A stretch of 64,000 bases of DNA from Gemmatimonadota bacterium (GTDB lineage Bacteria; Gemmatimonadota; Gemmatimonadetes; Gemmatimonadales; GWC2-71-9), in contig JANLPG010000145.1 in NCBI GenBank assembly GCA_031367105.1, positions 48,679 to 112,678 on the forward strand, in the 5' to 3' direction. The translations under genes were made by a program, and so were the position numbers. The notes beneath the pieces were generated by a model. It did no database searches. It was not told the origin of the DNA and worked only from the letters and a program-made list of their open reading frames with translations. Shown here one piece after another: positions 16,766 through 62,584 of this stretch; positions within the stretch are counted from its first letter, which is position 1; each line of letters begins with the position of its first letter.

Positions 16766-16769
16766 GACG

Positions 16770-17015: not shown

Positions 17016-17356
17016 TCGTCCTCGTCGTCATCATCCATTTCCGAACCGTCCGGGATGTACTCCTCGTGCGCGACGAGCGCGCGTAACTCCTTACTGGGCT
17101 TGAACACCGGGACCGGGCGCGCGGCAACTTCCACCGGATCGCCGGTGCGCGGATTTCGCGCCATCCGGGTCTTTCGGCGTCGAATCTTGAAGGTTCCGAA
17201 GCCTCGAACCTCGATGTTGTGCTGGTCGCGCATCGCGAGCTTCACCGCATCCAGGAATGCGTCGACGACACGCGCACAATCCTTCTTGGAGATCATCGGC
17301 CCCGACGTGCGGGCGATTGCGGCAGTCACCTGTTCGACAAGATCGGCCTTGGTCAT
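17012..17356 (-). CDS. HU/IHF-family DNA-binding protein with acidic C-terminal tail
   Basis: Track ORF 17012..17509 trimmed to ATG 17356. MTKADLVEQVTAA...FLDAVKLAM...VEVRGFGTFKIRRRKTRMARNPRTGDPVEVAARPVPVFKPSKEL is the HU/IHF beta-arm signature. The tail is ...EEYIPDGSEMDDDDEDE. Confidence 0.8.
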   Translation of the reverse strand: MTKADLVEQVTAAIARTSGPMISKKDCARVVDAFLDAVKLAMRDQHNIEVRGFGTFKIRRRKTRMARNPRTGDPVEVAARPVPVFKPSKELRALVAHEEYIPDGSEMDDDDEDE

Positions 17357-35446: not shown

Positions 35447-35529
35447 TGCCCAAGGTGGGAGTCGAACCCACATGCCCGTGAAGGCTGCGGATTTTGAGTC
35501 CGCTGCGTCTGCCATTCCGCCACTCGGGC
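35447..35529 (-). tRNA. tRNA-Leu (anticodon CAA), type II with long variable arm
   Basis: Hand-folded 83 nt: GCCCGAG-TG-GCGGAATGGCAGACGC-A-GCGGA-CTCAAAA-TCCGC-AGCCTTCACGGGCAT-GTGGG-TTCGACT-CCCAC-CTTGGGC-A. 7-bp acceptor stem with one G-U pair, GTTCGA T-loop, CAA in the anticodon position. CCA is not encoded. Confidence 0.85.
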
Positions 35530-44218: not shown

Positions 44219-44377
44219 TCAGGACTCCGGCGGAGTGCGCCGAGCGACAATCCGGAGGAGCAGCGCGACGCCAAGCACAGCAATCGCAGCCCAAGTCACC
44301 CGCCGGTCATCGCGCCAGAGCGCCAACACGGCCAGGAGGATGCCTGCCAGCGCGACGGGTATGCGGAGCCTGCTCAC
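44219..44377 (-). CDS. unlisted 52-codon ORF encoding a two-TM mini-protein
   Basis: Own translation: VSRLRIPVALAGILLAVLALWRDDRRVTWAAIAVLGVALLLRIVARRTPPES. The GTG at 44377..44375 forms a GTGA overlap with the enoyl-CoA hydratase stop, the same coupling used all over this window. It falls below the 60-aa cut-off of the ORF track. Confidence 0.4.
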   Translation of the reverse strand: MSRLRIPVALAGILLAVLALWRDDRRVTWAAIAVLGVALLLRIVARRTPPES

Positions 44378-45129
44378 GACTTCAGAAAAGCAGCAATTGC
44401 CTGCCGGAAATCGGGCGTGGCCCGCGAAAGTGCGTTCACCCTGGCCCCGAGCAGGATGCCCTCCTCAAACGTGCGCTCGTCGAGTCCGGTGAACAGCTGC
44501 TTCGTGAGGGCGAATGCGGTAGGGCTCTGGGTCGCGAGCTGACCGAGCAGCAGCGCCAGATCTGCCTCGAAGGTGTCGTCGGGTATGGCACGGCTGATCA
44601 GCCCCATCGTGAGCGCTTCGCTGGCCGAAATGGTCCGGCCGGTCGCTACCAGCTCGAAGGCGCGTTTCTCGCCCACGCTGCGGCGCAGTATCGTCATCAC
44701 CATCGCCGGCACGAAGCCGCGACCGATTTCAGGGTAGCCAAACGATGCCGAATCGGCCGCAACCACCAGGTCACACGCCGTCGCGAGTCCGGCGCCACCC
44801 GCCAGGGCGCGGCCGTGCACGATCGCCACCGCGGGCTTGGGCAGCCGACGCAGCACCAGGAAGATCTCACCCAGGCGAAGTGCGGCCTGTTCATTCTCTG
44901 CCAGCGACCGGTCGGCTGAGGCGAGCAGTTCGTCGAGGTCGGCTCCCGCGCAGAAGTCCTTCCCAGCGCCCCGGATGGCGACGACCCGTACGGCCGCGTC
45001 GAGTTCGGCCCGGGCCAGCGACTCCGCAAGCCCATCGAGCATCTGGACGCTGATGGCATTGCGCTTCTCAGGCCGATTGAGCGTCAGCGTCAGGACACCG
45101 TCGACCAAGGAACTGAGGAGCTCGCTCAC
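44374..45129 (-). CDS. enoyl-CoA hydratase/isomerase (crotonase) family protein
   Basis: 251 aa. LNRPEKRNA, RGAGKDFCAGADL, HGRALAGGAGLATACD, PEIGRGFVP. Confidence 0.85.
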   Translation of the reverse strand: MSELLSSLVDGVLTLTLNRPEKRNAISVQMLDGLAESLARAELDAAVRVVAIRGAGKDFCAGADLDELLASADRSLAENEQAALRLGEIFLVLRRLPKPAVAIVHGRALAGGAGLATACDLVVAADSASFGYPEIGRGFVPAMVMTILRRSVGEKRAFELVATGRTISASEALTMGLISRAIPDDTFEADLALLLGQLATQSPTAFALTKQLFTGLDERTFEEGILLGARVNALSRATPDFRQAIAAFLKS

Positions 45130-45479
45130 GACAGCTGCTCTCGGGCACGCTTGGCAATCCTTCGGGGCACCTCAACCTCCATCCGAAGCAGTGCCGTGGA
45201 ATACACCTTTCCCTGGGCATCGGTCTTCAGGGAGAGCGTGCCGCCACCATCGAGCGCCCCGTGGAGCAGGAAGTTCAGCGCGTTGAGATTCGGGAGTTCG
45301 AAGCGCTCCACGCCGCTGACCATACCCTTGAAGTGCTTGGCAACGCGCTTGCGGGTGACTTGCTCCACGAGGATGGGGTAGAACTCCGGCTCGAGGGCGA
45401 TCAGGCCGACGTTTGCGGTGTCGCCTTTGTCGCCCGAGCGCGCGTGCGCAAGAAATCGCAGCTGGACCATTGTTGCCAT
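45126..45479 (-). CDS. AtuA C-terminal (ferredoxin-fold) domain protein: small half of a split AtuA
   Basis: 117 aa. ...LAHARSGDKGDTANVGLIA...RFELPNLNALNFLLHGALDGGGTLSLKTDAQGK... resembles the C-terminal roughly 100 aa of full-length AtuA proteins. Its ATG shares one nucleotide with the upstream stop. Confidence 0.6.
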   Translation of the reverse strand: MATMVQLRFLAHARSGDKGDTANVGLIALEPEFYPILVEQVTRKRVAKHFKGMVSGVERFELPNLNALNFLLHGALDGGGTLSLKTDAQGKVYSTALLRMEVEVPRRIAKRAREQLS

Positions 45480-46855
45480 CAGACCATCTCCACGCGGACG
45501 AAGGGTTCGATCCTGTCGCGATCCATCAACGCGGGCCAGTACGCGACGATTTCCTCAACCGCTGGGCGTCCCCCGGCGAAGCCGGTGACGCTCGGAGGTC
45601 CAGTCAGTACCAATGGTGCGATCTCGCGTGTGAATCGTTCCACCGCCGCTCGGTCGCCACCTCGCACCCCGATGCGCAACATCACTTCCGCCAGGTCGGG
45701 GGATGGAGTCCCTGCCAGGCGACCGTGCGTTGCGTCCACACCCACATATTCGGTGAGGATCTGCTCAAAGGAGAGTCCGAGCGCAGTCAACCGCTTGCGG
45801 AGGATGCGGTCGGCTGCCTTGGCCTTGTCGAGGGCATCGGGCCAGGAGTAGACCAGCGAGCCGATCGCCTTATAACCGTAAAAGTACGCCACCGACACCT
45901 TGAGGAGTGGAGTCCGCGGTCGCCCCTGAATCCCGGAGACTCGCACCCGATTCTTTCCGACTTTCTTGAGCCGGATCGTGGTGAAATCGACGATGCCGTC
46001 GGGGGTGATGTAATTCGCGGGATCGCCCATCTCGTAGACGAGCTGCTCGCTCACCGATGGCACGCTGACGACGCCACCGGTTCCCGGATGCTTGGTGACC
46101 ACAAAGGAACCATCGGCCGACGCCTCGACCAACGGAAACCCAACGTCTTCAAGGCGCTTCACGGAACGCCAGTCGCGCAGCAGATTGCCCCCTGAACTCT
46201 GCGCGCCACACTCGAGGATATGCCCGGCAATCGTGCCGGCGGCGATCCGGTCCCAGTCATCGGCTGCCCATCCGAACTCGTGGACCAGCGGCCCGAGGGT
46301 GAGACCGGTGTCGGTGACTCTCCCGGTGATCACGATGTTGGCGCCGCGATCGAGCGCCTCTGCCACCGGCGCCATTCCGAGGTATGCATTGGCGGAGCGG
46401 ACCCGATCGCGCACATCGGAAAGCGGTCGGCCGGTATCCATATTCGAGAACGCCTCACCTTCACCGATGAGGCGATCGAGCCGATCGAGGAGGTCGTCTC
46501 CCGTCACCAGCGCGATCCGGATTCGATCGCCAACGCCAAGGCGTTCTGCCGCAGCGCGCACGGCCTCGGCGCAGCCACGCGGGTTCACACCGCCAGCGTT
46601 GGAGATCACCCGGATGCCGCGCTCGGCGACATCGGGGAGGATCCGCTCCATCTGGCCCACAAAGTCGCGGGCATAGCCCGCGCTGGGATCGCGGGATCGC
46701 TGCTTCTGCAGGATCGACATCGTGACCTCAGCCAGATAGTCCAGCACGAGATAGTCGATCGGGCCGCCCTGTACCTGGCGCATCGGCGCCTCGAGCCAGT
46801 CTCCCCAGAACCCCTGCCCGGCGGCGATGCGAACCGTCTGCTTCCGTTCCTTCAC
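45479..46855 (-). CDS. acyclic-terpene-utilisation AtuA-family protein (DUF1446), large half
   Basis: 458 aa. [11 protein letters not shown]...[17 protein letters not shown]...NAGG.NP...ITGRVTD...[12 protein letters not shown] is the typical DUF1446/AtuA pattern. GTGA overlap with the S8 gene stop. Confidence 0.7.
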
Positions 46856-49692
46856 GGCGTCGTGCCTCCCTGCAGCGCGATTTCGCGCATCCAGATGGTA
46901 TCCTCGCCTTCCTGAGCCAGGACAATGATGACCGCAGCAAACCCCTGAGGCACTGTCAGTGGGAATGGTCCAGTGTGGAACCCCTGCTCGAGCACTTTCC
47001 CCGGCGCAACGGTCTGCGCCGATCCCCCACCTTCGTCGAGACTGACCACGCGCTCGGCGTAGAAACGGACATTGAGGTCAAGCTGCCACGACAGCGACTC
47101 CCGGGTTGCGAACGCCGGCGACAGCAGGATAATGAGCGAATCGCCTGTCACGCGGGTCGGCAATTCCGGCGCGGTTCGACCGAAGGCATAATCGAGGGGG
47201 GAGGCAGCGAACTGACGACCGAAGCGATCCTGGAACGCCAGGGAGAAGTCGGTGAATCGAGGCCATTCCGAGCGTGGCATCCGGGAATCGACCTGGACTC
47301 TGACAGCCCAGCTCGGTACCGCAATCGCGACCCGCTGGGGTACATCGTCGGCTCGGCGAATCGTGAAGCGACGCTCGGCGCCGGCCAAGCCGGCGCGCAG
47401 GCGCACCGTGACCGGGGCGCTGACGACGTTTCGTGCGCTCACGTGCAGCGTGTCGAGGCGACGCGTTGCCATCAGCCGTACCGGTGCCCTGCGCACGGTC
47501 ACGGTGGCGGCGGAAGCGGCAAGAGGTCCGGCAATCACGTCAAGTTCATAGCTACCGCTGTCGACATCGTTGGCCCCGATATCGAAGAGGGCCGCCCCAT
47601 CGCCGTTGCCAGCCGGCAGCGTCGCGCCATCGCGGAACGGCATTCCACCAGGCTCGTGCAGCGATGCCGTGACCGGTGCATCCGCGAGGGCGGTGGCGAC
47701 CTCGATCTGCATCCCGCGGCCACTGTCCGCGGGGATAATCACGCGGGCAACGTTTCCCGCGACCATTCTCACGAGCTGCGAGGCCACCCGCGAAGTGGCC
47801 GGGAGTGGCACGCGCACTGTCACGGGGAGCTCTACCAGGGGACCAAAGTCAGTATTGCGGACGTCCAGCGTGATGACAGCACTGCGCACCCCCGGTGGCA
47901 CTCCGGCGACATCCACCCGCACGGTGAACTCACCACGTCCGTCCGACACGGTGAGCGTCGGCGGGACGTGAACCCACGCCTCGCTCGGAAGGAGCCGAAG
48001 CAGCACGGTTGCAGTGGTGTCGCGTCGGTGGATGGCGACCCGCGCAGTGAGCTGCGCCACACTCTCCGGGGACGGCGCCGTCAGCAGGACGGCGCCGCGC
48101 GCTCGCACGTCACCCACCTCCACGTCGAATCGAGGGACCTCACGGGCGGTCGACAGCCAGTTCCACGCCGACGTGATGTCGGGAATGCCGGCGCCAGCGT
48201 CCACAGCCGTGGTGCCAGCCGGCCGACGCGCGCTGACACGCAGCGCCTGCCCAAGCACGGCCGCGCTGGCGTGACGCCGGGTTGCCACAAGCCCGGACAG
48301 CAGCCGTGCGGCAAGCCCGGCCGCATACGGGGTTGCCATACTGGTGCCGCTCTGCTGTTCGCGCCCGATTGCAAAGTTCGGGATCGAGGAATACCCCGTG
48401 CCAGGCACCACGAAATCCGGTGCGGCGAGTTCCCCACCGCGACTCGAGTACGGGGCGACCGGCTCCGCCGCACTCTCGTGCGGCGCCTGACCGGCGAAGA
48501 TGGCAGGATCGGTGGCCCCAATGGCCAGCACTCGCGCCGAGCTCCCGGGGAAGCCGATGGTACTCAACCCGGGCCCGTCGTTTCCTCCCGCCACCGTCAT
48601 CACGACGTCAGGATTGGCCGTCAGGATGGAGTCGATCTGGGCGTCGATGTGTGCCATCCCCGCTGCCTCGTTCCCGACTCCGAAGGAGAGGTTGGCCACG
48701 AGCGGGAGCTGCCGTTCGCGTGCGAAACGGATCGCATACGCGAGCGCGGCGACCATCGATCCCGAAGTGGTGACTCCACCGTGGGCGTCGTTGGCGATCT
48801 TCAACCCGATCAGCCGGGCACCGGGTGCCACGCCGTCGAAGCCGGGGACGCCGTAGAGGTCGTGACCGGCGGCGATGCCGGCGACGTGCGTCCCGTGATC
48901 GCTGGTGTCGAAGAAAAGATCGAGCAACGGCACACCGGCCGAATCCGACAAATTCGCGGCGACCGTCACTGGTGCGGGGCGGTTGGTCATCGACCAGCCA
49001 AACGACTCCCGCGCGAGTCCGTAATCCCGAATCGGTCGATCGTCGGACAGCGTGCCATTCCCCTGGGTATCGGCGAACAGCGTCCAGCCAGAACCATTCC
49101 GCACCACGACAAGCGGCAGGGAGTCACCCACCGTACCGTTGCCATTAATGTCCGCTGCGGGTGGCTCTCCCAGGGGGAGTTCCTCCAGCAGACCGCCGTA
49201 GATGCGCCCCCCGTCGGCGAGTGCCGCGACGCGAGCGGCCCCGAGCAGGCGGTGGCCGCGCACCATCAGCGTGTCGCCGTGCCGTTCGATGGGCTCCAGG
49301 GCGATGCGCCCTTCACCGGAGAAGTCCCGCAGGTCGAGCAGCTTGGGCAGTCCTTCACTGGTAGTCTGCAGCCCCGGAACGGAGGGATCGATCCCGCTGT
49401 CGAGGATCGCAATCAGGACGCCCCGGCCATCAAAGGCGGGATGCTCGGCGGCGAAGCGCGGGATTCCGCTGGAGCCCAGTGGCATCATCCCGGCCCGAAA
49501 GGCATCCACGGGCGGCAAACTCCGCCGGGGCGCCGGCACCGGGGCGTCGGGACCGCTGGCGGGGCCGGGTGGCGGCGGCAGGACCATCTGGCCCGGTACC
49601 GGAGCCGGATCGACGCTCGGTCGCCCTGGCGGTGCGCCGGGGGTGCACGCCACGACCAGCACGGCGAGAATCGCGCTGCGACGATGCATCAT
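46852..49692 (-). CDS. subtilisin-family (S8) lipoprotein peptidase with tripeptidyl-peptidase-II-like catalytic spacing
   Basis: 946 aa. Lipobox [16 protein letters not shown]. Triad blocks AILDSGID (Asp98), [12 protein letters not shown] (His266), [11 protein letters not shown] (Ser451). Large beta-rich C-terminal region. Confidence 0.8.
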
Positions 49693-51326
49693 CAGCCGCG
49701 AACACTGTCCAGCACGAACGGACCCAGATGGGGACCGGCGTAGTGCGACGTCACCCGGAGGAGAAACGCGAGCATCGCGCGGGATTCCTCCGGCGTGATA
49801 ATGGCATCCACAAAGCCACGTGCCGCGGCGTAGCGGGCGTCCAGCTGCTCCTCATAGTCGGCGCGCATCGCGTCGACCGACCCTTGCGTGGCGCCGTCGA
49901 GCGGACGTTTCTCCTGTTGCGCTTTCTGGATCGTCGGGCCGTGGACGGCCATTACAGCGGCTTCGCCTTCCATCACCGCCATCCGACCGGTGGGCCAGGA
50001 GACGATGAAGTCGGGGTCGAATCCTTGTCCGGCCATCGCATAGTAGCCGGCGCCTGAGGCGTGATTCACGGTCAACACGAGCTTCGGTACGACGGTGGTC
50101 GCCATCGCCTCGACGAAGTGGGCACCGGCGCGAATGATTCCCTCCTGCTCCGCCTCGGGCCCGACCATAAAGCCGCTGACATCCTGGACGAAGAGAATCG
50201 GCAGTCGCTCCCGATTCGCGGTCTCGATGAAGAACGCCACCTTCTCGGCGCTTTCAGCGTAAACGATCCCCCCGAAGCGGGGGCGCTCGCCCTCCTTCCC
50301 CTTGATGATGCCGCGCTGATTGGCGATCACTGCGACAGGATGCCCTTCGATCCGTGCGTGCCCGCAGAGCATCTCGCGCGCGATATCCGGCTGGAACTCC
50401 TCGAGTCGCCCGTCGTCGAGGAGGGCGTCGAGAACGTGCCGCATGTCATAAGAGAGCCGGTGATCGTGCGGTAGCACCTCGTAGAGTGTCGCCGGGTCGA
50501 CCTTGGGGGGTCGAGCCGGCGTGAGGGCGTGGACCATCCCCGGCGCACTCGGCAAGCGGCCGATATATTCACGAATCTGCACGACACAGTCGGTATCGTT
50601 GGTCGCCCTGTAATGGGCAACCCCGCTCGTCTGTGTGTGAGTTCGCGCACCGCCCAGCGATTCGGAATCGACGGTCTGGCCGGTCGCCCCCTTCACGAGA
50701 TTCGGTCCACCCAGTCCCATGAACGAAGTGCCTTCCACCATGAAGATGACGTCGGACAGGGCGGGCAGGTATGCGCCACCGGCGATGCAACTGCCCATCA
50801 CGGCACTGATCTGCGGCACGTGCAGATAGCGGCGCATCAGCGAGTTGTAGTAGAAGATGCGCGCGGCGCCGTATTGACCCGGAAAGACGCCGCCTTGATA
50901 GGGCAGATTGACACCGGCAGAATCCACCAGGTAGATGATCGGAATGCGTTCGCGCATCGCGATCTCCTGCGCCCGGAGAATCTTGGTAATCGTCTCCGGC
51001 CACCACGACCCCGCTTTCACGGTCGCATCGTTGGCCACCACCACGACATCGCGCCCGGCAACCACCCCGACACCGGTGATCACCCCGGCCGCTGGCGCCT
51101 CGCCATCGTAGCGATCGTAGGCCACCAGCAGTCCGATTTCGCACCACGGCGCACCGGGATCGAGGAGACGTGTGACACGTTCACGGGGAGAGAGCTGCCC
51201 CTTGGCGTGCATCCTGTCGACGCGCTTGGTGCCTCCACCCTCCCGAAGACGAGAGGCGAGCGCGAGGTATTCGTCGGTCAGCGCGCGCAGTCGGGTCGCG
51301 CGAATCGCGGGAGGCGGCGTGGTCAT
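49692..51326 (-). CDS. acyl-CoA carboxylase carboxyltransferase (beta) subunit, MccB/PccB/AtuC family
   Basis: Track ORF 49692..51362 trimmed to ATG 51326. GQLSPRERVTRLLDPG, VVVANDATVKAGSWWPETITKILRAQEIA, IYLVDSAGVNLPYQ, VMGSCIAGGAYLPALSD. Substrate specificity is not assignable by eye. Confidence 0.85.
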   Translation of the reverse strand: MTTPPPAIRATRLRALTDEYLALASRLREGGGTKRVDRMHAKGQLSPRERVTRLLDPGAPWCEIGLLVAYDRYDGEAPAAGVITGVGVVAGRDVVVVANDATVKAGSWWPETITKILRAQEIAMRERIPIIYLVDSAGVNLPYQGGVFPGQYGAARIFYYNSLMRRYLHVPQISAVMGSCIAGGAYLPALSDVIFMVEGTSFMGLGGPNLVKGATGQTVDSESLGGARTHTQTSGVAHYRATNDTDCVVQIREYIGRLPSAPGMVHALTPARPPKVDPATLYEVLPHDHRLSYDMRHVLDALLDDGRLEEFQPDIAREMLCGHARIEGHPVAVIANQRGIIKGKEGERPRFGGIVYAESAEKVAFFIETANRERLPILFVQDVSGFMVGPEAEQEGIIRAGAHFVEAMATTVVPKLVLTVNHASGAGYYAMAGQGFDPDFIVSWPTGRMAVMEGEAAVMAVHGPTIQKAQQEKRPLDGATQGSVDAMRADYEEQLDARYAAARGFVDAIITPEESRAMLAFLLRVTSHYAGPHLGPFVLDSVRG

Positions 51327-51334
51327 CGGGCGGT

Positions 51335-51769
51335 TCAGGGGCGGACGTGCTGCCGCGCCCACTCCTGGATGTAGGTCACCAGATCGCCAGTGGGCGTTCC
51401 CGGTCCGAAAAGCCGGCCGATGCCCTGAGCGTGCAGCGCATCCATATCCTCCTGGGGGATGATCCCCCCCCCAGTGACCAGGACGTCCGGCCGCCCCATT
51501 TCGGCCAGGAGGCTGCGCACCCGGGGGAACAATGTCATATGTGCCCCGGAGAGGATCGACAGCCCGACAACGTCAGCGTCTTCCTGCACTGCTGCGGTCG
51601 CGATCATCTCCGGCGTCTGGTGCAACCCGGTATAAATGACCTCCATTCCCGCATCACGCAGTGCGGCCGCCACGACCTTGGCGCCGCGATCGTGCCCATC
51701 GAGGCCGGGTTTGGCCACGAGCACGCGAATCGGCCGGGAAAGCGGCGGGGCATCGACAGAAGCCATCAT
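51335..51769 (-). CDS. acyl-CoA mutase small subunit (cobalamin-binding domain)
   Basis: Track ORF 51335..51886 trimmed to ATG 51769 (SD GAGGG overlapping the upstream stop). B12-binding DxHxxG motif in [15 protein letters not shown], then SILSGAH, GGGIIP. Confidence 0.85.
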
Positions 51770-51779
51770 GACATCACCC

Positions 51780-52934
51780 TCACTTGAAGCGAAGGAGGCC
51801 CGCCAGGCCATCGACGGCCTCTGCGGCCGGAATGTCGTAGACCACATCCAGCGCCACGCGCTGGCGCAGCGCCTCCTCGATGGCATCGTCGATCACGTCG
51901 ACGGACGGAATCACTTCCCCGTCCTCTCGCAGATCACGTGCAAGCGTCGAGAGGCGTCCGGTGGCAAGCGACCGGAAACCGCTGACCGCGGCTTCGCCAC
52001 GCACCAGGAGCAGCCGCACCTGGCCCTGCGACAGGGCCTTCAGGGTTTCGCGCACCCCGTTGACCGCCCAGCCAGTGCCCAGCCCCTCGGCTAGCTCCTC
52101 CACGTGACGCGCCTCGGAGATCCGCACGTGGTGCTCCCGCACATCCATCGTGAGGTGATGCACCGCGTTCGGCGTGGCATCTTTGGGAGCGAGTCGCGCC
52201 AGCCCGATCAACCGGTCCGCGACATAGTTGTGCAGGTACGGCTCGAGGGCACTCGCATCATTGCCCGCCCCGGCGACCACCACCTGATGCCCCGGTGAGG
52301 CGCGGTCAAGTTCAAACAGCGCGCGCGCGACGGCCTCGAGATGCCGGCGCTTCTCATTCTGGATCCGGTTGTGGAAGGCGAACTCACCGGTCGCGTTGCT
52401 GCGGGCACCGGAGGCGTGGAACCTGCCACCTCGCGTGACCTCCGTCGTCACCTTGCGAACCACCTTCGCCTCGTAGGCGGTCACCTCCCAGATGAGTGCG
52501 GTCGCGCGATCGAGGGTGACGGTGAACAGCCGGCCGAATTCTTCCTCGCTGGCGGCCAGCTCGCGAACGAACGGTGTGCGATCAACTGCAAGGCGCGAAC
52601 GGTGGACGCGTGGCAGGGGTCGCACCTCGAACAGTTTCGCCCCCGAGGAAAGGAAGATCCCCACTCCTTGCGTCTCGGGCAGTCGGTCGGCATCTCGCAG
52701 GTAGTCCAGCATCAGGGCAAGGTCCGCCTTGATCGCTTCCTGTTGCTGCTTGGTCCAGCCCATCGATGGAAGTGCGTATTCGAGTTCCTTGATCCGGTTC
52801 TTCACCTTGACGAGGTACTTCCGGCGAGCGCGGTCACGAGGTTCGATCTTGAGGTAGCAGGTGATGACCGGGTGCGTGCCCGGCTTCATTCGCAACAGAT
52901 CGCGCGAGCTGGTGCTCGCTCGGGTGGTGGCCAT
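51780..52934 (-). CDS. hypothetical protein with eRF1/Pelota-like (bacterial aeRF1, baeRF/VLRF1-type) architecture
   Basis: 384-aa ORF with strong SD (GAGAGGAG 6 nt before the ATG). Central [11 protein letters not shown]...[38 protein letters not shown], and C-terminal [23 protein letters not shown]...[15 protein letters not shown] am confident it is a real gene (about 0.85); the fold assignment is by-eye only. Confidence 0.5.
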
Positions 52935-52949
52935 GGAAACTCCTCTCTG

Positions 52950-54640
<1,691 letters not shown>

Positions 54641-54644
<4 letters not shown>

Positions 54645-55681
54645 ACCCGGGCTCCTTCTTTCAGCGAAGCAACGATCTCGGCTGCCAGTTCGTAAGGACT
54701 GAGTTGGCCGGCAGTGACATCATCAAGCCGCGTGGTGATTGCCTCCTCGGCGTGCGATTCCTGCCAGACCCAGCGACGCGTGGCACGGTCCACGACTTCG
54801 CGGGTCCGCTGGGCCAGGCGTTCGCGTCGACGACGCTCCAGTTCTCCGCTCGAGACCATCCAGTTCCAGTGACGGTCCAGTTCGGCCAGAAGTTCCCCAG
54901 TTCCCTCACCCGTCGAAGCCACTCCCAGCAACACCGGAGCGCGCCAGCCGTCATCCGTCGGGTGGCCCTTCGCGATGCTCGCCGAAGGCCGCTGCTTCAC
55001 AGCGCCGTGATGCGCCGGCAGATTGCGGTGCGCCGTGCCCAGCCGGAGGTCGAGCGCGAGTTCGATCTCGCGTCGCACCTTCTCCGCCCCGGGGCGATCG
55101 GCTTTGTTGACCACAAAGCAATCGGCGACTTCCATCACGCCGGACTTGAGCGCCTGAATGCCATCACCCGATTCCGGTACCAGTACCAGGATGGTGCTGT
55201 CCGCCATCCGGGCGACGTCCAGCTCCGACTGCCCGACACCCACCGTCTCTACGAGGATCCGATCAAACCCTGCCGCATCGAGGAGATCACAGACCTCCCG
55301 AGTCGCGGTGGCCAGCCCGCCGAGCGAACCGCGGGTCGCCATCGATCGGATGTAGACCCCGGGGTCCAGGGCAATCTGCTCCATCCGAATGCGATCGCCG
55401 AGCAGCGCTCCTCCGGTAAAGGGCGAGGTCGGATCTACCGCCACCACCGCGACGCGGAGACCGCTGGCGCGATAGCTGGAAACCAGCCGTTCGGTCAGGG
55501 TGGACTTGCCGGCCCCCGGAGGACCGGTGATGCCGATCCGGCGGGCGCGACCGAGGCGAGGATGGATGCTCGCGAGCAAGGCTTCGAAGCCGTCGCGGCC
55601 GTTTTCCACAATCGACACCGCACGGGCCAATGCCGCGACTTTTCCGTCGAGTAACTGGGTGAGCAGCGGGTGGTCGGCCAT
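54641..55681 (-). CDS. meaB: MeaB/ArgK-family G3E GTPase (mutase chaperone)
   Basis: Track ORF 54641..55906 trimmed to ATG 55681 (alternative start 55699). Walker [34 protein letters not shown] overlap with the mutase large subunit. Confidence 0.85.
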
Positions 55682-55707
55682 AGCGGAAACTACCACCATT
55701 ACTGGAG

Positions 55708-57048
55708 TTAGAGCAAAATCGCGGTCGCGAGACCCAGCAGGAGGCCAAAGCCACAGACGTCGGTGAAGGTGGTCACGAAGATCGAGGACGCCACCGCCGG
55801 ATCGATCCCGAGTCGCTCCAGCAGCACCGGGATCGACGATCCCGCGAAGCCCGCCACGAACAGGTTGCCGCTCATCGCGAGGAAGACGACCATTCCCATC
55901 CGCCACGATTCACCCAGCAGCACCGACACCCCCGCCACCACGATTCCGATCGCGATCCCGTTGATGATCCCGACCAGGATTTCCTTCGTGATGATCGACC
56001 GACTTCGGTCGGCCGGCACTTGCCCGAGCGAAAGTCTGCGAACCGAGACGGCGAGCGCCTGGGTCCCGGCATTGCCCCCCATTCCGGCGATGATGGGCAT
56101 CCAGATGGCGAGGGTGGTGATCCGCTCGATCGCACCCTTGAAGAAAAGCACCACGGCTGCCGCGAGGAATGCCGTCAACAGGTTCACGTAGAGCCAGGGC
56201 AGCCGGCTGCGCACGGAGCTCGACCAGCGGGCGCTCAATTCTTCATCGGGAGAGACACCGCCGAAACGCAGCAGGTCTTCCGTTGCCTCAGCTTCCGTGA
56301 CGTCGCTCACGTCGTCGTAGGTCACGCGGCCGAGCAAGCGACCGGCGGAGTCGACCACAGGGACCGCGACCAGGTTATAGCGCGCCATGATCCGTGCGAC
56401 CTCTTCCTGATCTTCCTCGGCACCGACACGGATGTCGGCGTCCTCCATCACATCCCGAACCAGCCGGGCCTGCGAGGTGACCACGAGGCGCTTGAACGAC
56501 AGCGTTCCAACCAGCCGACGGGCGGTATCGACCACAAAAATCTCGGTCACATCGTCAACATCCTCGGCCTGCCGGCGCACTGCCTCCAGCGCGAGGCCCA
56601 CCGTGTCGAGATCCGTGACCGTGACGAGGTGGGAGGTCATCAACCCACCGGCGGTCTCCTCGTCGTAGCGCAGCAGGCGATCGACCTCGGTCCGATCCTC
56701 GACCCACGCCAGGATGCGCTCCTGCTCCGCCGGCTCGAGTTCGCCCAGCAGGTCTGCCGCGTCGTCGTCGTCCAGCTCGTCGACGATTCCCGCCGCCTGC
56801 TCGGTGTCCAGTGCAGCGACAATCGCTTCGGCGTGTGCATCGGCCGGGAGCTCGACCAGGGCTTGCGAGGACAGTTCCGGCGGAAGCACTCGGACCAGCG
56901 CCAGCCGCTCATCCTCGTCCAGGGAGGCGAGCACATCGGCCAGGTCGGCGGGTTCGAGCTCCCACGCTCGCTGGACAAAGGTCTCGAGCCGACCAGCGCG
57001 CACCAGCAGGACGAGCTCCTCGAGGGGTGTTTCCGGGCCGTGACTCAT
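55708..57048 (-). CDS. mgtE: magnesium transporter MgtE
   Basis: 446 aa. Acidic N-domain (PADLADVLASLDEDE), tandem CBS, five-TM C-terminal domain with GNAGTQ and TFTDVCGF. Confidence 0.9.
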   Translation of the reverse strand: MSHGPETPLEELVLLVRAGRLETFVQRAWELEPADLADVLASLDEDERLALVRVLPPELSSQALVELPADAHAEAIVAALDTEQAAGIVDELDDDDAADLLGELEPAEQERILAWVEDRTEVDRLLRYDEETAGGLMTSHLVTVTDLDTVGLALEAVRRQAEDVDDVTEIFVVDTARRLVGTLSFKRLVVTSQARLVRDVMEDADIRVGAEEDQEEVARIMARYNLVAVPVVDSAGRLLGRVTYDDVSDVTEAEATEDLLRFGGVSPDEELSARWSSSVRSRLPWLYVNLLTAFLAAAVVLFFKGAIERITTLAIWMPIIAGMGGNAGTQALAVSVRRLSLGQVPADRSRSIITKEILVGIINGIAIGIVVAGVSVLLGESWRMGMVVFLAMSGNLFVAGFAGSSIPVLLERLGIDPAVASSIFVTTFTDVCGFGLLLGLATAILL

Positions 57049-58235
57049 CCGGTCACACGATCGAGCTCGACCGGCGTGACGGCGGCCCTGCGCACCAGCA
57101 ATCGCTCGATTCGCGTGGGGGACGCCTGAACCACATCGATGTCCAGCCCGCGGAGCGTGAATCGCTCACCTGCCGATGGTATCCGACCGAGAAGTTCCGC
57201 CAGCAAGCCACCGAACGACGCCGCTGCTCGGGCTGGCAGCACGACATCAAAGTGCTGGGCCACCCGCTCTGGTGCCTCGGAGCCGTCGAGTTCCAGCAGC
57301 GTCCCGGACGCCAAGGCGGCCACCGGCGCAGCCGCGTCGTCCTCGTCGGAAATTTCGCCCACGAGCCCCTCGAGCAGGTCCTCGAAGGTGACCAGACCAG
57401 CGGTGCCACCAAACTCGTCGAGCACGACTGCGAGATGCCGATGGTCACGCTGCATATCGAGCAGGAGGTCTCCTGCGAGCCGGGTCTCGGGGGCGTACGA
57501 CACCGGACGCACGGGAAGCGCGTCGGACGGACTCTGCTTGAAGAGGTCGAAGGCGTGGATCATCCCGGTGATTTCGTCGAGTGTCCCGCGATAGACTGGA
57601 ATGCGCGTATAGCCGGATTCCGCGAAGGTGGCGAGCACCTGAGCGTGCGTCGCGTCGTAGGGCACGGCGATCATCTCGGTCCGCGGGGTCATGATGGCCC
57701 GTACCGGTCGTTCGGCGAAGGTCATCACCCCGCCCACCATCACCAGCTCTTCCCCGCCGAGCCCGTTTGCCGAGCCCTCGCGGGCAAGCGCCCGAACATC
57801 CTCCGAGGGGTCCGGACTGCGCGCTGGCAGGACCATCGCAAGGAGCGCACTCCAGCCGCGCACGATCGGACCGAGCCACTCGAGCGTACGCTCCGCCCGG
57901 GGCACCGTGAACCAGCGCGGCAGCAGGTAGCCCCCGAGGAGCGTGACCGGGACGACCAGGAAGGCGACGAGGAGCGCGAGTTGCGGCAGCAGGACCACGC
58001 CCAACAGGCCCGGAATCACCGCACCGACCAACGCGACTCCGAGCGATGTCGCGGCAGCCGAGGCCGCGACTTGTCGCTGGGTCGTCGAGACCCAGTCGAG
58101 CGAGTCATCCCCGCCTCGGAGCCGACGGGAGATCGTCGCCGCCAGGGTCGCTCGCGCCGTGGCAACCAACGCCGCCGCGCCCGACGAGCCAAGGAATGCC
58201 ACCGAGAGCCCGAGGAGGAGCAGGAGGAGGTTCAT
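57045..58235 (-). CDS. CNNM/CorC-HlyC family protein (DUF21 membrane domain + CBS pair + CorC_HlyC)
   Basis: Track ORF 57045..58337 trimmed to ATG 58235 (ATGA overlap with the upstream paralogue). ...AIMTPRTEMIAV..., HRHLAVVLDEFGGTAGLVTFEDLLEGLVGEI, C-terminal transporter-associated domain. Confidence 0.8.
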   Translation of the reverse strand: MNLLLLLLGLSVAFLGSSGAAALVATARATLAATISRRLRGGDDSLDWVSTTQRQVAASAAATSLGVALVGAVIPGLLGVVLLPQLALLVAFLVVPVTLLGGYLLPRWFTVPRAERTLEWLGPIVRGWSALLAMVLPARSPDPSEDVRALAREGSANGLGGEELVMVGGVMTFAERPVRAIMTPRTEMIAVPYDATHAQVLATFAESGYTRIPVYRGTLDEITGMIHAFDLFKQSPSDALPVRPVSYAPETRLAGDLLLDMQRDHRHLAVVLDEFGGTAGLVTFEDLLEGLVGEISDEDDAAAPVAALASGTLLELDGSEAPERVAQHFDVVLPARAAASFGGLLAELLGRIPSAGERFTLRGLDIDVVQASPTRIERLLVRRAAVTPVELDRVTG

Positions 58236-59425
58236 TCGTCCGTCTCCCGAGCCACGACCACCTCGGCGGTGTCCGGCGGCCAGAAGGCGACCCGGCGAAT
58301 CCGGCGGCGTACCACCAGTTCGACGACCACCCGCCACCCGTCGATGTCGGTGGTTTCACCCGGACGTGGCACCCGACCGAGCTCGGCCAGCACGAGCCCA
58401 CCGACTGTCGCCACATCACCGCGTTCGAAATCGTGCTCCAGCTCGGCCTCGAGGTCGGCGAGCGGGACCCCGCCCTCCACGAGCCAGTGCCCATCGGGGA
58501 GTCGCTGCACCGGCTGCACTTCATCGGTGTCGTGCTCGTCCTGAATTTCGCCGACGATCTGCTCGAGGATGTCCTCGAGTGTGACGATTCCGGCGGTACC
58601 CCCGAACTCGTCGACCACCACAGCGAGGTGACCAGGCCCCCGTTGGAAATCGCGCAATTGTCGGTCCAGCGTCTTTCCAGTGGGCACGAAGGCCGCGGGA
58701 CGAATCAGCGACTGCCAATGCTCGCGCGCCGGCTGCTCGGCATAGAGCCGGGGAAGGACGTCCTTCGCGTAGATCACGCCAACGACGGCATCCGGGTGGC
58801 CATCAAGCACCAGGAGACGAGCGTGCTGGCTGCGGCGCAGGGTGGCCACCACCTCCGCCTCGCTCTCCGAACTCTGCACCGCAATGATATCCAATCGGGG
58901 CGTCATCACTTCCGCCACTTGCATCTCGGCCAAGGAGAACACGCCGAGCGCCATCTCCTGGGGAGAATGGCCATCGGAACGGGCGGCAATCCGTGACGGA
59001 TCGACGCGCCCTCCGTCCAGATAAATCGCCATCCACAGTAGTGGCGCAAAGACGGGGCGTGCCGCGAGGGCAAGGTGTCGGGCGTGCGGAACGAGTTCGG
59101 GCGCGAGGGTCGCCAGCAAGCGCGGCGCGAGATCGCCGACCGTCCAGACCAGCACCGTCACGAGCAGGACGCGAATCAGGGCGAGTGCTGGCGGGTAGGC
59201 CCACCAGGCGACGGCAGTCCCGGCGATGGCAGCCGCGGCAGTGAGCGACGCGAGATGGATGACGTGTAACACACGTTCGGGCGGCAATTCGTCGCTGCTC
59301 GGATCGCGTGCGAGGGCGCGGGCGCCAAGTTCAGTATCTCCTTCACCAGCAAGCGCTACCAAACCGGCCCAGAGCATCACCAGGCCGGCCAGTGCGGGCA
59401 ACAAGGCTTGCAGCAGGGCGGTCAC
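58232..59425 (-). CDS. CNNM/CorC-HlyC family protein, second tandem paralogue
   Basis: Track ORF 58232..59461 trimmed to GTG 59425 (GTGA overlap with the ybeY stop). EVMTPRLDIIAV, GHLAVVVDEFGGTAGIVTLEDILEQIVGEI. Confidence 0.8.
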   Translation of the reverse strand: MTALLQALLPALAGLVMLWAGLVALAGEGDTELGARALARDPSSDELPPERVLHVIHLASLTAAAAIAGTAVAWWAYPPALALIRVLLVTVLVWTVGDLAPRLLATLAPELVPHARHLALAARPVFAPLLWMAIYLDGGRVDPSRIAARSDGHSPQEMALGVFSLAEMQVAEVMTPRLDIIAVQSSESEAEVVATLRRSQHARLLVLDGHPDAVVGVIYAKDVLPRLYAEQPAREHWQSLIRPAAFVPTGKTLDRQLRDFQRGPGHLAVVVDEFGGTAGIVTLEDILEQIVGEIQDEHDTDEVQPVQRLPDGHWLVEGGVPLADLEAELEHDFERGDVATVGGLVLAELGRVPRPGETTDIDGWRVVVELVVRRRIRRVAFWPPDTAEVVVARETDE

Positions 59426-59856
59426 GTGAGGGCCTTGACGTACTGTTCCTGCCGCTGCCACATCGCCGAACGGGTGCGCGTCTCGCCTTCGGGATGTTCG
59501 TATCCGAGCACGTGGAGCGTGCCGTGCACGACCAGTCGCACCAATTCTTCCCGTACGCCGAGGCCTCGGTGACGAGCCTCGCGTGCGGCGACATACGGAC
59601 AGACGTAGATATCACCTGAGAGCGTGCCGTCCGGCATCGGCAGTGCGAAGGCGATGACGTCAGTCAGGCGGTCGTGCTGTTTGTACTCGGCATTCATCTG
59701 GCGCATCCGGCGCGGGCCCAGGAAAGTGACCGCGATGCTCGCCTCCCGCCGTTCCGCCGAGAGAACGTGGGCCACGGCGTTACGCACGATCCGGACTGGA
59801 AGTCGTCCTCTCGCGCCGCCCACCATCACTGCCGGGGTCCCGGGGACGCTCATCAA
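59422..59856 (-). CDS. ybeY: rRNA maturation endoribonuclease YbeY
   Basis: 144 aa. Zinc motif HGTLHVLGYEH (H-x3-H-x5-H). Start is TTG 59856 or ATG 59853. Confidence 0.85.
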   Translation of the reverse strand: MMSVPGTPAVMVGGARGRLPVRIVRNAVAHVLSAERREASIAVTFLGPRRMRQMNAEYKQHDRLTDVIAFALPMPDGTLSGDIYVCPYVAAREARHRGLGVREELVRLVVHGTLHVLGYEHPEGETRTRSAMWQRQEQYVKALT

Positions 59857-60809
59857 CCCGCCTGATCCTCCGCGTAGGCGCGGATGATGTCGCGGACCAA
59901 GCGATGCCGCACCACGTCTTCATCGGTCAGGTAGTGGAACCCGATGCCCTCGATCCCCGGGAGGACGCGCTCGATCTGAATCAGGCCACTGTCCTCCCGG
60001 CGCGGCAGATCGATCTGAGTCTTGTCGCCAGTGACGACCACCTTGCTATTCACGCCAAGCCGGGTGAGAAACATCTTCATCTGCGCTATAGTGGCGTTCT
60101 GTGCTTCGTCGAGGATGATGAATGCGTCGGCCAGCGTGCGCCCCCGCATATAGGCGAGCGGCGCGATCTCGATCGTGCGCGTTTCGAGTGCCTTCTGGAC
60201 CTTCTCGTGGGACATCATATCTTCGAGCGCGTCGTAGAGCGGGCGGAGGTACGGATCGACCTTCTGCTGGAGGTCGCCGGGGAGAAACCCGAGCGATTCT
60301 CCGGCCTCGACGGCAGGACGTGCCAGCACGATTCGCTTGACCCGCTTGCGGGCAAGCGCCTCAACGGCTTTCGCCACGGCGAGGTACGTCTTCCCGGTGC
60401 CAGCCGGCCCGATGCCGATCACAATGTCGTGGTTGTTGATGACGTTCAGATATTCGCGCTGCCCGGGGGTCTTGGCCACGATCGCACGACGCATTCCGGG
60501 AATCACGATCTTCGTGCCGTCGCCCGTCGTGGTCACTTCGGCGAGATGGCCGTCCGTGGCGAGCCGGTAGACATCCTCGGGTTCAATCGGCTGCCCCGCC
60601 CGAGCCAGATCGACGAACCCCTGCACCACGGGCGTCGCCCGTTCAAGCTGCGCCACCGTCCCGACCAGCGTCAGCGCATCGCCGCGCTGCGAAACGCGCA
60701 CCCCGAGCGCACGCTGAATTTCTGCAAAGTTGGCTTCGTTGACACCAGCAAGCAGCAGTGGGTCGGCACCTTCGGCGTTGAGCGTGTGGCGGACATCTTC
60801 ACTGTTCAT
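59853..60809 (-). CDS. phoH: PhoH-family ATPase (YbeZ-like)
   Basis: 318 aa. Walker A GPAGTGKTYLAV, FIILDEAQN, VVTGDKTQIDLP. Confidence 0.9.
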   Translation of the reverse strand: MNSEDVRHTLNAEGADPLLLAGVNEANFAEIQRALGVRVSQRGDALTLVGTVAQLERATPVVQGFVDLARAGQPIEPEDVYRLATDGHLAEVTTTGDGTKIVIPGMRRAIVAKTPGQREYLNVINNHDIVIGIGPAGTGKTYLAVAKAVEALARKRVKRIVLARPAVEAGESLGFLPGDLQQKVDPYLRPLYDALEDMMSHEKVQKALETRTIEIAPLAYMRGRTLADAFIILDEAQNATIAQMKMFLTRLGVNSKVVVTGDKTQIDLPRREDSGLIQIERVLPGIEGIGFHYLTDEDVVRHRLVRDIIRAYAEDQAG

Positions 60810-62584
60810 TCCGTGCTCCCCGAAGTGGACCGGAGCTGAAGTGCGACAAGGTCCGTCGCCGACACCGATGTTGGCGCACCTTCGAACAGCGCGCGAGCCG
60901 CCGCCGTCTTCGGGAAGGCGATGACGTCTCGCAGCGACGGCGCCCCGGCGAGCAGCATCGCGATGCGATCGAAGCCGAGTGCGAATCCACCGTGCGGCGG
61001 TGCCCCGGAGGCGAGGGCGTCGAGCAGGAAACCGAACCGCCGCCGCTGTTCCTCGCCCGAAACGCCAAGAAACCGGAACACCGTCGCTTGCAACACGGGA
61101 TCCGTGATGCGGATCGATCCGCTGCCCAGTTCGTTGCCGTTGTACACTGCGTCGTAGTGCAAGGCCCGACAGCGCCAGGGCTCGGTTTCGAGAAAGGCGA
61201 TGTCATCCGGGTGGGGAGACGTAAATGGGTGGTGGGTGAACACCCAGGCGCCCGTCAGCGAGTCGAGCTCGAAGAGCGGGAAGTCGACCACCCAGGCGAA
61301 CGCGTGCGCGAACTGCGGATGGACGTCCGGGTGACGCGTGAGCGACGTCCGAATCGCGTGGAGCGCCGGACTGGTCACGCTGTCGACGCCGATCACGGCG
61401 ACGAGCAGCGCCCCTGCGTCGGCGTCGATCTGCGCCAATGCGCCGACACCGAATGCCTTCACCCCCTGACCTTCCCACCCCGCGTCGGTCCGCTTCGCCC
61501 AGATGAGTCCCGGGGCGCCGGCACTCCTCGCAACGCCAGTGAGAAGGTCGAGTTCCTTGCGGGAGAGCCCGGACTGACCCGGCGCCACGATTGCACGGAG
61601 GCGTCCGCCTGCGGCGATACCCTCTCGCACAAACGGCGCCGCATCGTCGCCTGCCAGGGCGCCGATGTCGCGAATCTCGAAGCCATATCGCAAGTCGGGC
61701 TTGTCAATTCCGAACCGTTCCATCGCGTCCCGATGTGTCAATCGCTCGAATGGAATCGTGACCGCCTGCCCCGCCTCGTTCCAGAGCTCCTGCAGTACCC
61801 GCTCGATCACCGGCAACACATCCTCGACTCCGACGAAGGAGGCCTCGAGGTCGATCTGGGTAAACTCGGGCTGCCGGTCGGCACGGAGGTCCTCATCCCG
61901 GAAGCAGCGCGCGATCTGGAAGTAGCGGTCGAAGCCGGCGATCATCAGCAACTGCTTGTAAATCTGTGGTGACTGCGGCAGGGCATAGAACTCGCCTGGA
62001 TGGACGCGCGATGGCACCAGATAGTCACGGGCACCCTCCGGCGTCGGCTTGGTCAGGATCGGGGTCTCGATTTCGAGAAAGCCGAGCTCGGCGAGCGTCC
62101 GGCGGGCACGCTGTAACAACCGATGCCGCAGGATGATGTTCGCCTGCAATTCCGGCCGACGGAGATCCAGCACTCGGTATTGCAGTCGCAGTTCCTCGGA
62201 CGCGAGTTCCTCTCCCTCACGTCGGGCAACCTGGATCGCCGGGGTCACCGCCGGGCCGACAACACGAAGCGTGGTGACGTGCACCTCGATCTCGCGTGAC
62301 ACCATTCCGGTATCAGGCGCCGGCTCGCGACGCAACGCCACCACCCCTTCGACCAGAACGACCGTTTCCGCGCCGAGCGTGGCGCCCAGTGCCAGTATTT
62401 CCGGAGGAGTCCAGGCGGGGTCGCAGGAGAGTTGGACGATGCCATCACGATCCCGGAGATCGAGAAAGACGATGCCACCGAGGTCGCGACGTCGGTGAAT
62501 CCATCCTCCGAGTCGGACGGAAGCGCCGAGCTCGGCGCGGGTCAGCGAACCCGCGCGATGGGTGCGAAGTGAAGTGCTGTGCAT
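60806..62584 (-). CDS. aspS: aspartate--tRNA ligase
   Basis: 592 aa. OB-fold N-terminus RLGGWIHRRRDLGGIVFLDLRDRDG, class II motifs FRDEDLRADRQPEFTQID, GSGSIRI, GGFALGFDR. Confidence 0.92.
   Translation of the reverse strand: MHSTSLRTHRAGSLTRAELGASVRLGGWIHRRRDLGGIVFLDLRDRDGIVQLSCDPAWTPPEILALGATLGAETVVLVEGVVALRREPAPDTGMVSREIEVHVTTLRVVGPAVTPAIQVARREGEELASEELRLQYRVLDLRRPELQANIILRHRLLQRARRTLAELGFLEIETPILTKPTPEGARDYLVPSRVHPGEFYALPQSPQIYKQLLMIAGFDRYFQIARCFRDEDLRADRQPEFTQIDLEASFVGVEDVLPVIERVLQELWNEAGQAVTIPFERLTHRDAMERFGIDKPDLRYGFEIRDIGALAGDDAAPFVREGIAAGGRLRAIVAPGQSGLSRKELDLLTGVARSAGAPGLIWAKRTDAGWEGQGVKAFGVGALAQIDADAGALLVAVIGVDSVTSPALHAIRTSLTRHPDVHPQFAHAFAWVVDFPLFELDSLTGAWVFTHHPFTSPHPDDIAFLETEPWRCRALHYDAVYNGNELGSGSIRITDPVLQATVFRFLGVSGEEQRRRFGFLLDALASGAPPHGGFALGFDRIAMLLAGAPSLRDVIAFPKTAAARALFEGAPTSVSATDLVALQLRSTSGSTE

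Follow-up and report, generated by a model that had tools for sequence, protein, structure and literature searches.

A Balon-like aeRF1-fold protein encoded between the subunit genes of an acyl-CoA mutase in Gemmatimonadota, probably as an inherited operon passenger

Why would a relative of translation release factors be encoded amid the genes for the two subunits of a metabolic enzyme? This question is raised by a 64,000-nucleotide stretch of DNA from a Gemmatimonadota bacterium (hereafter the window; Gemmatimonadales, GWC2-71-9; GenBank assembly GCA_031367105.1, contig JANLPG010000145.1, positions 48,679 to 112,678), in which an open reading frame (ORF) of 384 amino acids separates the genes for the large and the B12-binding subunits of an acyl-CoA mutase. 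The initial annotation, made from the DNA letters alone, gave the product of this ORF, here called the baeRF protein, an eRF1/Pelota-like, baeRF-type fold, and implied a functional tie to the mutase. Our analysis upholds the fold and goes against the tie: the protein is probably a non-catalytic, Balon-like A-site factor of the hibernation type, and its gene an inherited passenger in the mutase operon rather than the gene of an enzyme partner.

The ORF is a real, constrained gene. It lies on the minus strand (Table 1), with its ATG 15 nt after the TAG stop codon of the large-subunit ORF and with a Shine-Dalgarno-like GAGAGGAG in the spacer, 5 nt 5' of the ATG; its own stop codon is TGA, and the ATG (51769) of the B12-binding subunit follows 10 nt on. 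Position, length and both gaps are thus as initially annotated, and all of the sequence blocks quoted at that time are present. The MeaB gene lies directly upstream and overlaps the large-subunit start by 4 nt, and an acyl-CoA carboxyltransferase gene directly follows that of the B12-binding subunit. When the block from MeaB to the carboxyltransferase was scanned for promoters and terminators, no terminator-like hairpin was found on the minus strand, and promoter-like matches around the operon stayed at chance level. Nor was there a riboswitch or leader near the operon, the sole Rfam match in the whole window being a tRNA gene (35447..35529, minus strand). More than 1,000 homologues of the ORF were found. 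An alignment of 28 relatives (54-90% identity) has 75 invariant columns, and dN/dS, the ratio of nonsynonymous to synonymous substitution rates, was 0.035-0.05 against the two closest loci, similar to neighbouring genes, although these values are only rough because dS exceeds 1. We also considered whether the window holds a further copy of baeRF and rejected this idea, and the PADLOC models of anti-phage defence gave no match to the protein at E<=0.01.

Profile searches and structure prediction both place the protein among release-factor relatives. In Pfam, residues 121-265 matched PF18854 (baeRF_family10) with 36.4 bits against a gathering cutoff of 27.1, baeRF families 3 and 2 scored 27.1 and 26.2 bits, just under their own cutoffs, and eRF1_3 gave a weak match at residues 274-384. 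Because families 2 and 3 score nearly as well, the family 10 label is borderline, or the protein belongs to a distinct subfamily. NCBIfam returned weak full-length matches to three families of ribosome hibernation factors (Rv2629, MSMEG_1130 and AOC03_06830). An AlphaFold2 model based on 28 homologues (mean predicted local distance difference test score, pLDDT, 84; predicted template modelling score, pTM, 0.70) has three domains in eRF1 topology. Foldseek gave 44 PDB matches to this model at E<=1e-3, and those listed are all Balon, aRF1/eRF1 or Pelota/Dom34. The best full-length matches are ribosome-bound Balon chains (E 1e-22 to 1e-16, template modelling score, TM, 0.61-0.72): Msmeg1130 in 8v9j_z and 8v9l_z (E 9e-22 and 1e-20, TM 0.69-0.72), Rv2629 in 8v9k_z, and P. 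urativorans Balon in 8rd8_B, 8rdv_B and 8rdw_B (TM 0.61-0.69). TM values for aRF1/eRF1 were 0.27-0.52, and for Pelota/Dom34 at most 0.41. The same relatives emerged when a HMMER profile built from 32 diverse family members was run against the PDB: MSMEG_1130 Balon was matched with E 3.7e-26 over residues 9-383, that is, over all three domains, followed by Rv2629 (3.4e-16), aRF1 (1.6e-15), Pelota (3.7e-11) and P. urativorans Balon (6.3e-10). Pfam, NCBIfam and Foldseek gave matches to the aeRF1 superfamily only, and none to the fold or family of an acyl-CoA mutase accessory protein such as a MeaB-type chaperone or adenosyltransferase. The ORF product is therefore a three-domain protein of the aeRF1 superfamily, within the bacterial baeRF-1 branch that includes Balon.

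We then located the functional motifs of release factors, or what stands in their place, using residue numbers that count Met1 (the model and alignments A1, of 28 close relatives, and A2, of 32 distant relatives, number one lower). In the N domain, the NIKS motif is absent, the aRF1 'NIKSK' aligning to approximately P56-K62 (PSMGWTK). The E31-P32-R33-D34-R35 motif of the same domain aligns, in the profile alignment, with the 'REHPAND' stretch ('EHP') of P. urativorans Balon (8rd8_B); it may be equivalent to the Balon HP motif, which is described without residue numbers (PMC10901736). The M domain, basic (pI 9.6) like the N domain, includes a strand-helix element, and the C-terminus aligns with those of Balon, aRF1 and Pelota, all of which end in '...LRY/LRF'. 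Within the C domain, an insert with two short strands occupies the site of the aRF1 zinc-ribbon/mini-domain and of the Balon beta-hairpin. Relatives in alignment A2 keep two Cys residues there (GFRC...C), and an insert at the zinc-ribbon site has been described for baeRF-1 and Balon (PMC6514570, PMC10901736).

In eRF1, GGQ is carried by a loop of the M domain. Here this loop is expanded, it differs in length between relatives, and it is modelled with low confidence (mean pLDDT of 70, 55 and 69 in successive 10-residue blocks from model residue 161 to 190). In the HMMER alignment, the aRF1 GGQ falls on the family motif G-x-G-E, which reads A181-T182-G183-E184 in this protein and G-x-G in the wider family. 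The model agrees with this register, since its long helix starts at about residue 181, and the downstream pattern (R..R..E-K..H) is that of eRF1. The R168-G169-G170-R171 motif, initially taken for the GGQ site, therefore lies about 12 residues too early; the doubt then cast on classical peptidyl-tRNA hydrolysis holds all the same, as there is no catalytic Gln in the loop, even though the position on which it was based was misplaced. Four residues of the loop region are invariant (R171, E184, N189 and R190). The helix segment F187-H198 is in register with the eRF1/aRF1 'RFARLRxExxxxxY' and is rich in Arg and Lys: R197 is nearly invariant, and K195-R196 stay Lys or Arg in most relatives. Conserved basic residues of this post-loop helix have been attributed to binding of large-subunit rRNA (Burroughs and Aravind, PMC6514570).

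Might the protein still act as a rescue or release factor, hydrolysing peptidyl-tRNA on stalled ribosomes by a mechanism other than that of GGQ? Non-GGQ catalysis has been raised as possible for baeRF-1 family 10 (Burroughs and Aravind, PMC6514570), a family singled out as keeping a well-conserved catalytic-type Gln (PMC6514570, 2019). It is family 10 that gives the best Pfam match here, and the four invariant residues of the loop region would be in keeping with an active centre. However, no conserved loop Gln was found in either the 28 sequences of alignment A1 or the 32 of alignment A2, the triplet equivalent to GGQ reads A-T-G in this protein and G-x-G across the family at large, the loop varies in length, a trait tied to inactive families (PMC6514570), and the nearest solved relatives are non-catalytic. 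Hydrolysis of peptidyl-tRNA is unlikely because the catalytic Gln is missing, and we regard an active release factor as quite improbable.

A closer parallel is found in Balon. Bacterial aeRF1 homologues, initially described as lacking a defined role, have since acquired one: Balon and the mycobacterial Rv2629 and MSMEG_1130 are A-site factors of hibernating ribosomes, partly with EF-Tu(GDP), and like the protein described here they have neither NIKS nor GGQ (PMC10901736, 2024). With Balon (PDB 8rd8, 8rdv, 8rdw, 8v9j, 8v9k, 8v9l) the baeRF protein has in common the three-domain fold, in a model near the ribosome-bound conformation, as well as the expanded loop before a basic helix and the beta-strand insert in the C domain; in addition, the genes of some close relatives have HPF, Usp or BON genes as neighbours. 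It differs from Balon in having 'E-P-R-D-R' in place of the 'H-P' stretch. Its expanded 20-residue M-domain loop of low pLDDT is a candidate counterpart of the Balon lasso loop and bL27 trap, and its two-strand C-domain insert one of the EF-Tu hairpin. Its gene, moreover, lies within an acyl-CoA mutase operon and not in a stress operon of the kind typical of Balon.

The other known members of the superfamily resemble the baeRF protein in part. As in baeRF-1 family 10 (PF18854), the M-domain match exceeds the cutoff and the protein is bacterial with the full three-domain architecture, but the Gln published as conserved in that family is missing from this subfamily. With aRF1/eRF1 it shares the fold, the domain order, the register of the post-loop helix (R..R..EK..H), the M-domain 'LxxAGxx' strand-helix element and the C-terminal '...G..A.LRF/Y' strand; unlike them, it has no NIKS, carries A-T-G in place of GGQ together with about 12 extra loop residues, and has the zinc-ribbon/mini-domain shrunk to a short strand pair; the structural match is modest. 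Pelota/Dom34 is likewise a non-catalytic A-site factor of the aeRF1 superfamily, with homologous M and C domains, but the match is weaker, the Pelota N domain and loop A differ, and Pelota splits ribosomes together with Hbs1/aEF1-alpha and ABCE1.

If the protein is a ribosome factor, how did its gene come to lie within a mutase operon? We compared the locus across genomes, a survey that the initial annotation had called for, and found that the order MeaB, mutase large subunit, baeRF, B12-binding subunit recurs, in about 90 Gemmatimonadota loci. The best 80 genome loci come from metagenome-assembled genomes of Gemmatimonadales or Gemmatimonadota, apart from one labelled Bacillota and one labelled 'uncultured bacterium', and in almost all of the best loci the series continues with the carboxyltransferase, an S8 peptidase and AtuA. 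A metagenome scan anchored on the B12-binding subunit, and so without selection for baeRF, added further copies in this slot, down to 38-45% identity. The slot position has thus been held over deep divergence (about 38-45% identity for baeRF and about 70% for the mutase large subunit). In trees of both the carboxyltransferase and baeRF, the slot-resident copies form one clade, which argues that baeRF entered the slot in a single insertion event; the co-occurrence with the mutase is limited to this clade and does not extend to independent lineages.

Around this clade, the slot is occupied in other ways or not at all. In a large subclade a HAD hydrolase gene has been added after baeRF, and in the sister group a class-I SAM (S-adenosylmethionine) methyltransferase gene takes the place of baeRF, with further additions of an LCM methyltransferase in one locus (L113) and of a STAS gene in another (L102). 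In more distant relatives nothing lies between the two mutase subunit genes, which are separated by 0-190 nt. Among these, one locus (L126) keeps the rest of the order, with MeaB, mutase large subunit, B12-binding subunit, carboxyltransferase and AtuA, and another locus (L135) likewise has the mutase operon without baeRF. The junction between the two subunit genes appears in these data as a variable cargo site (L093 1699-2466; L105 5092-5994; L113 355-2119; L102 1446-3641; L057 9058-9822).

The converse case was also observed. In three lineages (L018, L031 and L085/86), which occupy three separate positions in the tree, MeaB and the mutase large subunit have been lost upstream and the B12-binding subunit downstream, leaving an intact baeRF gene directly before the carboxyltransferase. 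The invariant residues are retained in L018 (75/75) and largely retained in L085/86 (69/75); the 75/75 count for L031 is trivial, because its protein belongs to the alignment that defines the invariant positions. That the flanking genes were lost and the middle gene kept, three times, indicates that baeRF is under selection independent of its neighbours. In L085, a gene for a fused B12-binding/MeaB/mutase protein (IcmF-like, more than 1,100 amino acids; 16233-17191, minus strand) is found on the opposite strand at a distance of about 7 kb, and has possibly replaced the split mutase.

These natural gains and losses bear directly on the proposal that the eRF1 fold has become a mutase accessory, bridging or regulating the two subunits, or engaging MeaB through its C domain as eRF1 engages eRF3. 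What speaks for such a role is the gene's position, next to meaB and flanked by the subunit genes, which is conserved in a single clade. However, the operon occurs without the protein and the protein, invariant residues included, without the operon, and this double dissociation contradicts a mutase or MeaB accessory role. The conserved motifs are common to relatives that have no mutase nearby, and the slot also accommodates unrelated genes for methyltransferases and a HAD hydrolase. MeaB, moreover, is a G3E/SIMIBI GTPase and is unrelated to EF-Tu and to the eRF3 domain, the GTPases bound by C domains of the eRF1 type. We therefore consider an accessory role extremely unlikely, and the functional tie implied by the initial annotation is not supported.

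A different explanation for the conserved position is co-regulation: a Balon-like ribosome silencer might have been selected for its place in an acyl-CoA catabolic operon, so that induction of a B12-dependent, starvation-type pathway would raise the level of a hibernation factor. The tight spacing (gaps of 15 and 10 nt and an overlap of 4 nt) without a terminator-like site inside the block, the retention of the arrangement through deep divergence, as seen in about 90 loci, and a purifying selection on baeRF equal to that on neighbouring genes are all in line with this idea. Against it, the arrangement goes back to a single evolutionary event, three lineages lost the mutase genes yet kept the factor, and in sister lineages the operon carries different cargo or no cargo at all; in addition, a starvation-specific transcript is unlikely, since the array also holds the housekeeping genes aspS, phoH, ybeY and corC. 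On balance, we judge selection for co-regulation to be rather unlikely.

Beyond the clade, relatives at 30-42% identity were never found with a mutase nearby, and these share the conserved baeRF motifs. Their neighbours include a NiFe hydrogenase and MarR (relative at 40% identity) and a PAS/GAF histidine kinase of a two-component system (42%), but also Usp, CBS, PCMT and tRNA_edit genes on the upstream side (30%), BON, two Usp genes, nitroreductase and CHAD (33%), DUF4342 and FtsH (37%), and BON (39%). At 41% identity, the order is HPF(S30AE)-cold-shock-domain fusion gene, inositol phosphatase, DUF4342, baeRF and MgtE, which places the HPF fusion gene three genes upstream of baeRF. Several of the relatives at 30-41% identity thus stand in stress or hibernation contexts like those published for Balon and baeRF-1 (PMC6514570, PMC10901736), among which RaiA/HPF, Hsp20, OsmY and similar genes have been reported beside Balon genes (PMC10901736). 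The initial annotation had held that the linkage to the mutase would be accidental if orthologues were found in unrelated contexts; this fits the relatives outside the clade, although the order does recur within it. Separately, we note that a small DUF4342 gene adjoins two of the relatives (37-41% identity; L173 919-4021 and L174 6001-7532); this baeRF subfamily may thus have DUF4342 as a recurring partner.

Taken together, these data make a non-catalytic, Balon-like A-site hibernation-type factor, encoded by a passenger gene, the probable answer to the question posed at the outset, an answer built on the observed fold, family, missing motifs and synteny with its dissociations. By this model, the protein would dock in the ribosomal A site with its basic N domain at the decoding centre, where, for lack of NIKS, it would read no codon. 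The M domain, likewise basic, would point toward the peptidyl-transferase centre, placing the Gln-less loop and the Arg/Lys-rich helix at the 23S rRNA, and the C domain, which is acidic and bears the beta-strand insert, would face a translational GTPase, which in the case of Balon is EF-Tu. The outcome would be that ribosomes are silenced and protected and that the peptide is not released. As for its gene, baeRF would have entered the gap between the subunit genes once, in the ancestor of a large Gemmatimonadota clade, and would have been co-transcribed as a passenger ever since, with no action on the mutase.

Several points weigh against this interpretation. The protein is only 14-19% identical to the solved Balons and falls far under the equivalog cutoffs of the three named NCBIfam Balon families (46.2 of 320 bits for Rv2629, 38.2 of 480 for MSMEG_1130 and 37.3 of 330 for AOC03_06830). 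The elements specific to Balon, namely the HP motif, the lasso loop, the bL27 trap and the EF-Tu hairpin, are matched only approximately, and what we propose on ribosome binding, on the contact with EF-Tu and on the protein's physiological role derives from homology and from the genes that surround its relatives. With respect to the passenger status of the gene, the carboxyltransferase and baeRF trees are neighbour-joining trees, unbootstrapped and computed from tblastn segments, and one slot copy on a long branch (L104) falls outside the main clade in the baeRF tree. Finally, the long survival of the slot position could reflect selection for co-expression instead of inertia. In this clade the protein might also hold a second, operon-tied job, in which its acidic C domain engages MeaB or the B12-binding subunit, or in which its level is set by operon transcription, so that ribosome silencing is coupled directly to flux through a B12-dependent acyl-CoA pathway; we consider this very unlikely.

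Table 1 Features of the baeRF gene, its product and the surrounding operon (coordinates are those of the window)
Feature	Coordinates	Strand	Basis and remarks
384-aa Balon-like / baeRF-1 (aeRF1-fold) protein gene	51780..52934, stop codon included	-	ORF and translation, ATG start
N domain, ~aa 1-132	52539..52934	-	model secondary structure; basic, pI 10.1; no NIKS
E31-P32-R33-D34-R35 motif	52830..52844	-	E31, R33, D34 invariant, R35 nearly (28-sequence alignment)
M domain, ~aa 133-273, equivalent to eRF1 middle domain	52116..52538	-	Pfam baeRF_family10; alignment to aRF1 'DGILVGGPSPTKDEF'
Expanded low-confidence loop T163-G183	52386..52448	-	block pLDDT and HMMER register against aRF1
R168-G169-G170-R171	52422..52433	-	in expanded loop, ~12 residues upstream of GGQ-equivalent
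GGQ-equivalent A181-T182-G183	52386..52394	-	loop end, directly before long helix; HMMER register against aRF1
Conserved basic start of long helix, F187-H198	52341..52376	-	N189, R190, I191, H198 invariant
C domain, aa 274-384, eRF1_3/Pelota-like	51783..52115	-	acidic, pI 4.75; ends in GLAGLLRFK
C-domain insert, ~aa 318-346	51897..51983	-	model strands 318-321, 340-343; alignment to aRF1
15-nt spacer, mutase large-subunit stop to baeRF ATG	52935..52949	-	sequence CAGAGAGGAGTTTCC
Acyl-CoA mutase large subunit, 564 aa	52950..54644	-	Pfam MM_CoA_mutase 750 bits
B12-binding small subunit, 144 aa	51335..51769	-	Pfam B12-binding and TIGR00640
MeaB G-protein chaperone	54641..55699	-	Pfam MeaB and TIGR00750; start uncertain, ATG 55699 likeliest
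Acyl-CoA carboxyltransferase subunit	49692..51362	-	Pfam Carboxyl_trans 442 bits; start uncertain
AspRS, PhoH, YbeY, CorC/CBS protein, MgtE	55708..62584	-	upstream of meaB
S8 subtilase, 946 aa, TPPII Ig-like domain	46852..49692	-	between carboxyltransferase and AtuA
AtuA, AtuA-ferredoxin-like gene, enoyl-CoA hydratase	44374..46855	-	after S8 peptidase

Turning to the wider surroundings, the operon is part of a long co-directional array of unrelated genes that runs from AspRS through PhoH, YbeY, CorC, MgtE, MeaB, mutase large subunit, baeRF and B12-binding subunit to the carboxyltransferase, and continues with the S8 peptidase, AtuA, AtuA-ferredoxin, enoyl-CoA hydratase and a RecQ-like helicase. 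The genes for PhoH, YbeY and CorC make up a cluster that is conserved in many bacteria and connected with ribosome maturation, and baeRF remains downstream of this cluster even where the mutase genes are gone (L085). The S8 subtilase keeps its place across the clade and evolves much faster than its neighbours (dN/dS 0.15-0.24), with 41-65% identity in most loci versus 75-90% for the neighbouring genes. The combination of AtuA genes, enoyl-CoA hydratase, carboxyltransferase and mutase suggests that the region encodes a branched-chain or terpenoid acyl-CoA catabolic route.

The mutase itself was also examined. The large subunit has Phe at the position of Tyr89 in P. shermanii methylmalonyl-CoA mutase (MCM; RQ-F-AGFG), an exact match to the Y89F mutant structure 5req, and Gln at that of MCM Arg207, a Phe/Gln pair that we take to be a signature of the isobutyryl-CoA-mutase type, although a literature search yielded no paper on this signature. 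In the PDB, the large subunit is matched best by the 2-hydroxyisobutyryl-CoA mutase HcmA, with MCM also among the best, and its substrate is probably a non-carboxylated acyl-CoA rather than methylmalonyl-CoA.

In agreement with the initial annotation, which knew of no described linkage to a B12 mutase operon, our literature search found none of eRF1, Balon or baeRF to operons of acyl-CoA (methylmalonyl-CoA) mutases, nor any report of baeRF or Balon in Gemmatimonadota; the word 'mutase' is absent from the main texts of PMC6514570 and PMC10901736, and the supplements of the Balon paper gave no match. The baeRF protein is a new addition to a known family, from whose other members it diverges somewhat, and the genomic position of its gene, unusual as it is, can be explained. 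It belongs to a distinct subfamily with invariant motifs of its own. Its identity opens no new category; it extends the Balon/baeRF-1 family of hibernation factors to Gemmatimonadota, a phylum that is widespread in soil and of which few members have been cultured. The locus also carries a caution for guilt-by-association reasoning, as a tight and strongly conserved place in an operon can be one frozen insertion, and the natural losses and alternative cargos seen here show directly that a conserved in-operon position need not imply a shared function. If the predicted ribosome binding holds true, the protein would provide an entry point for work on dormancy in soil bacteria that grow slowly.

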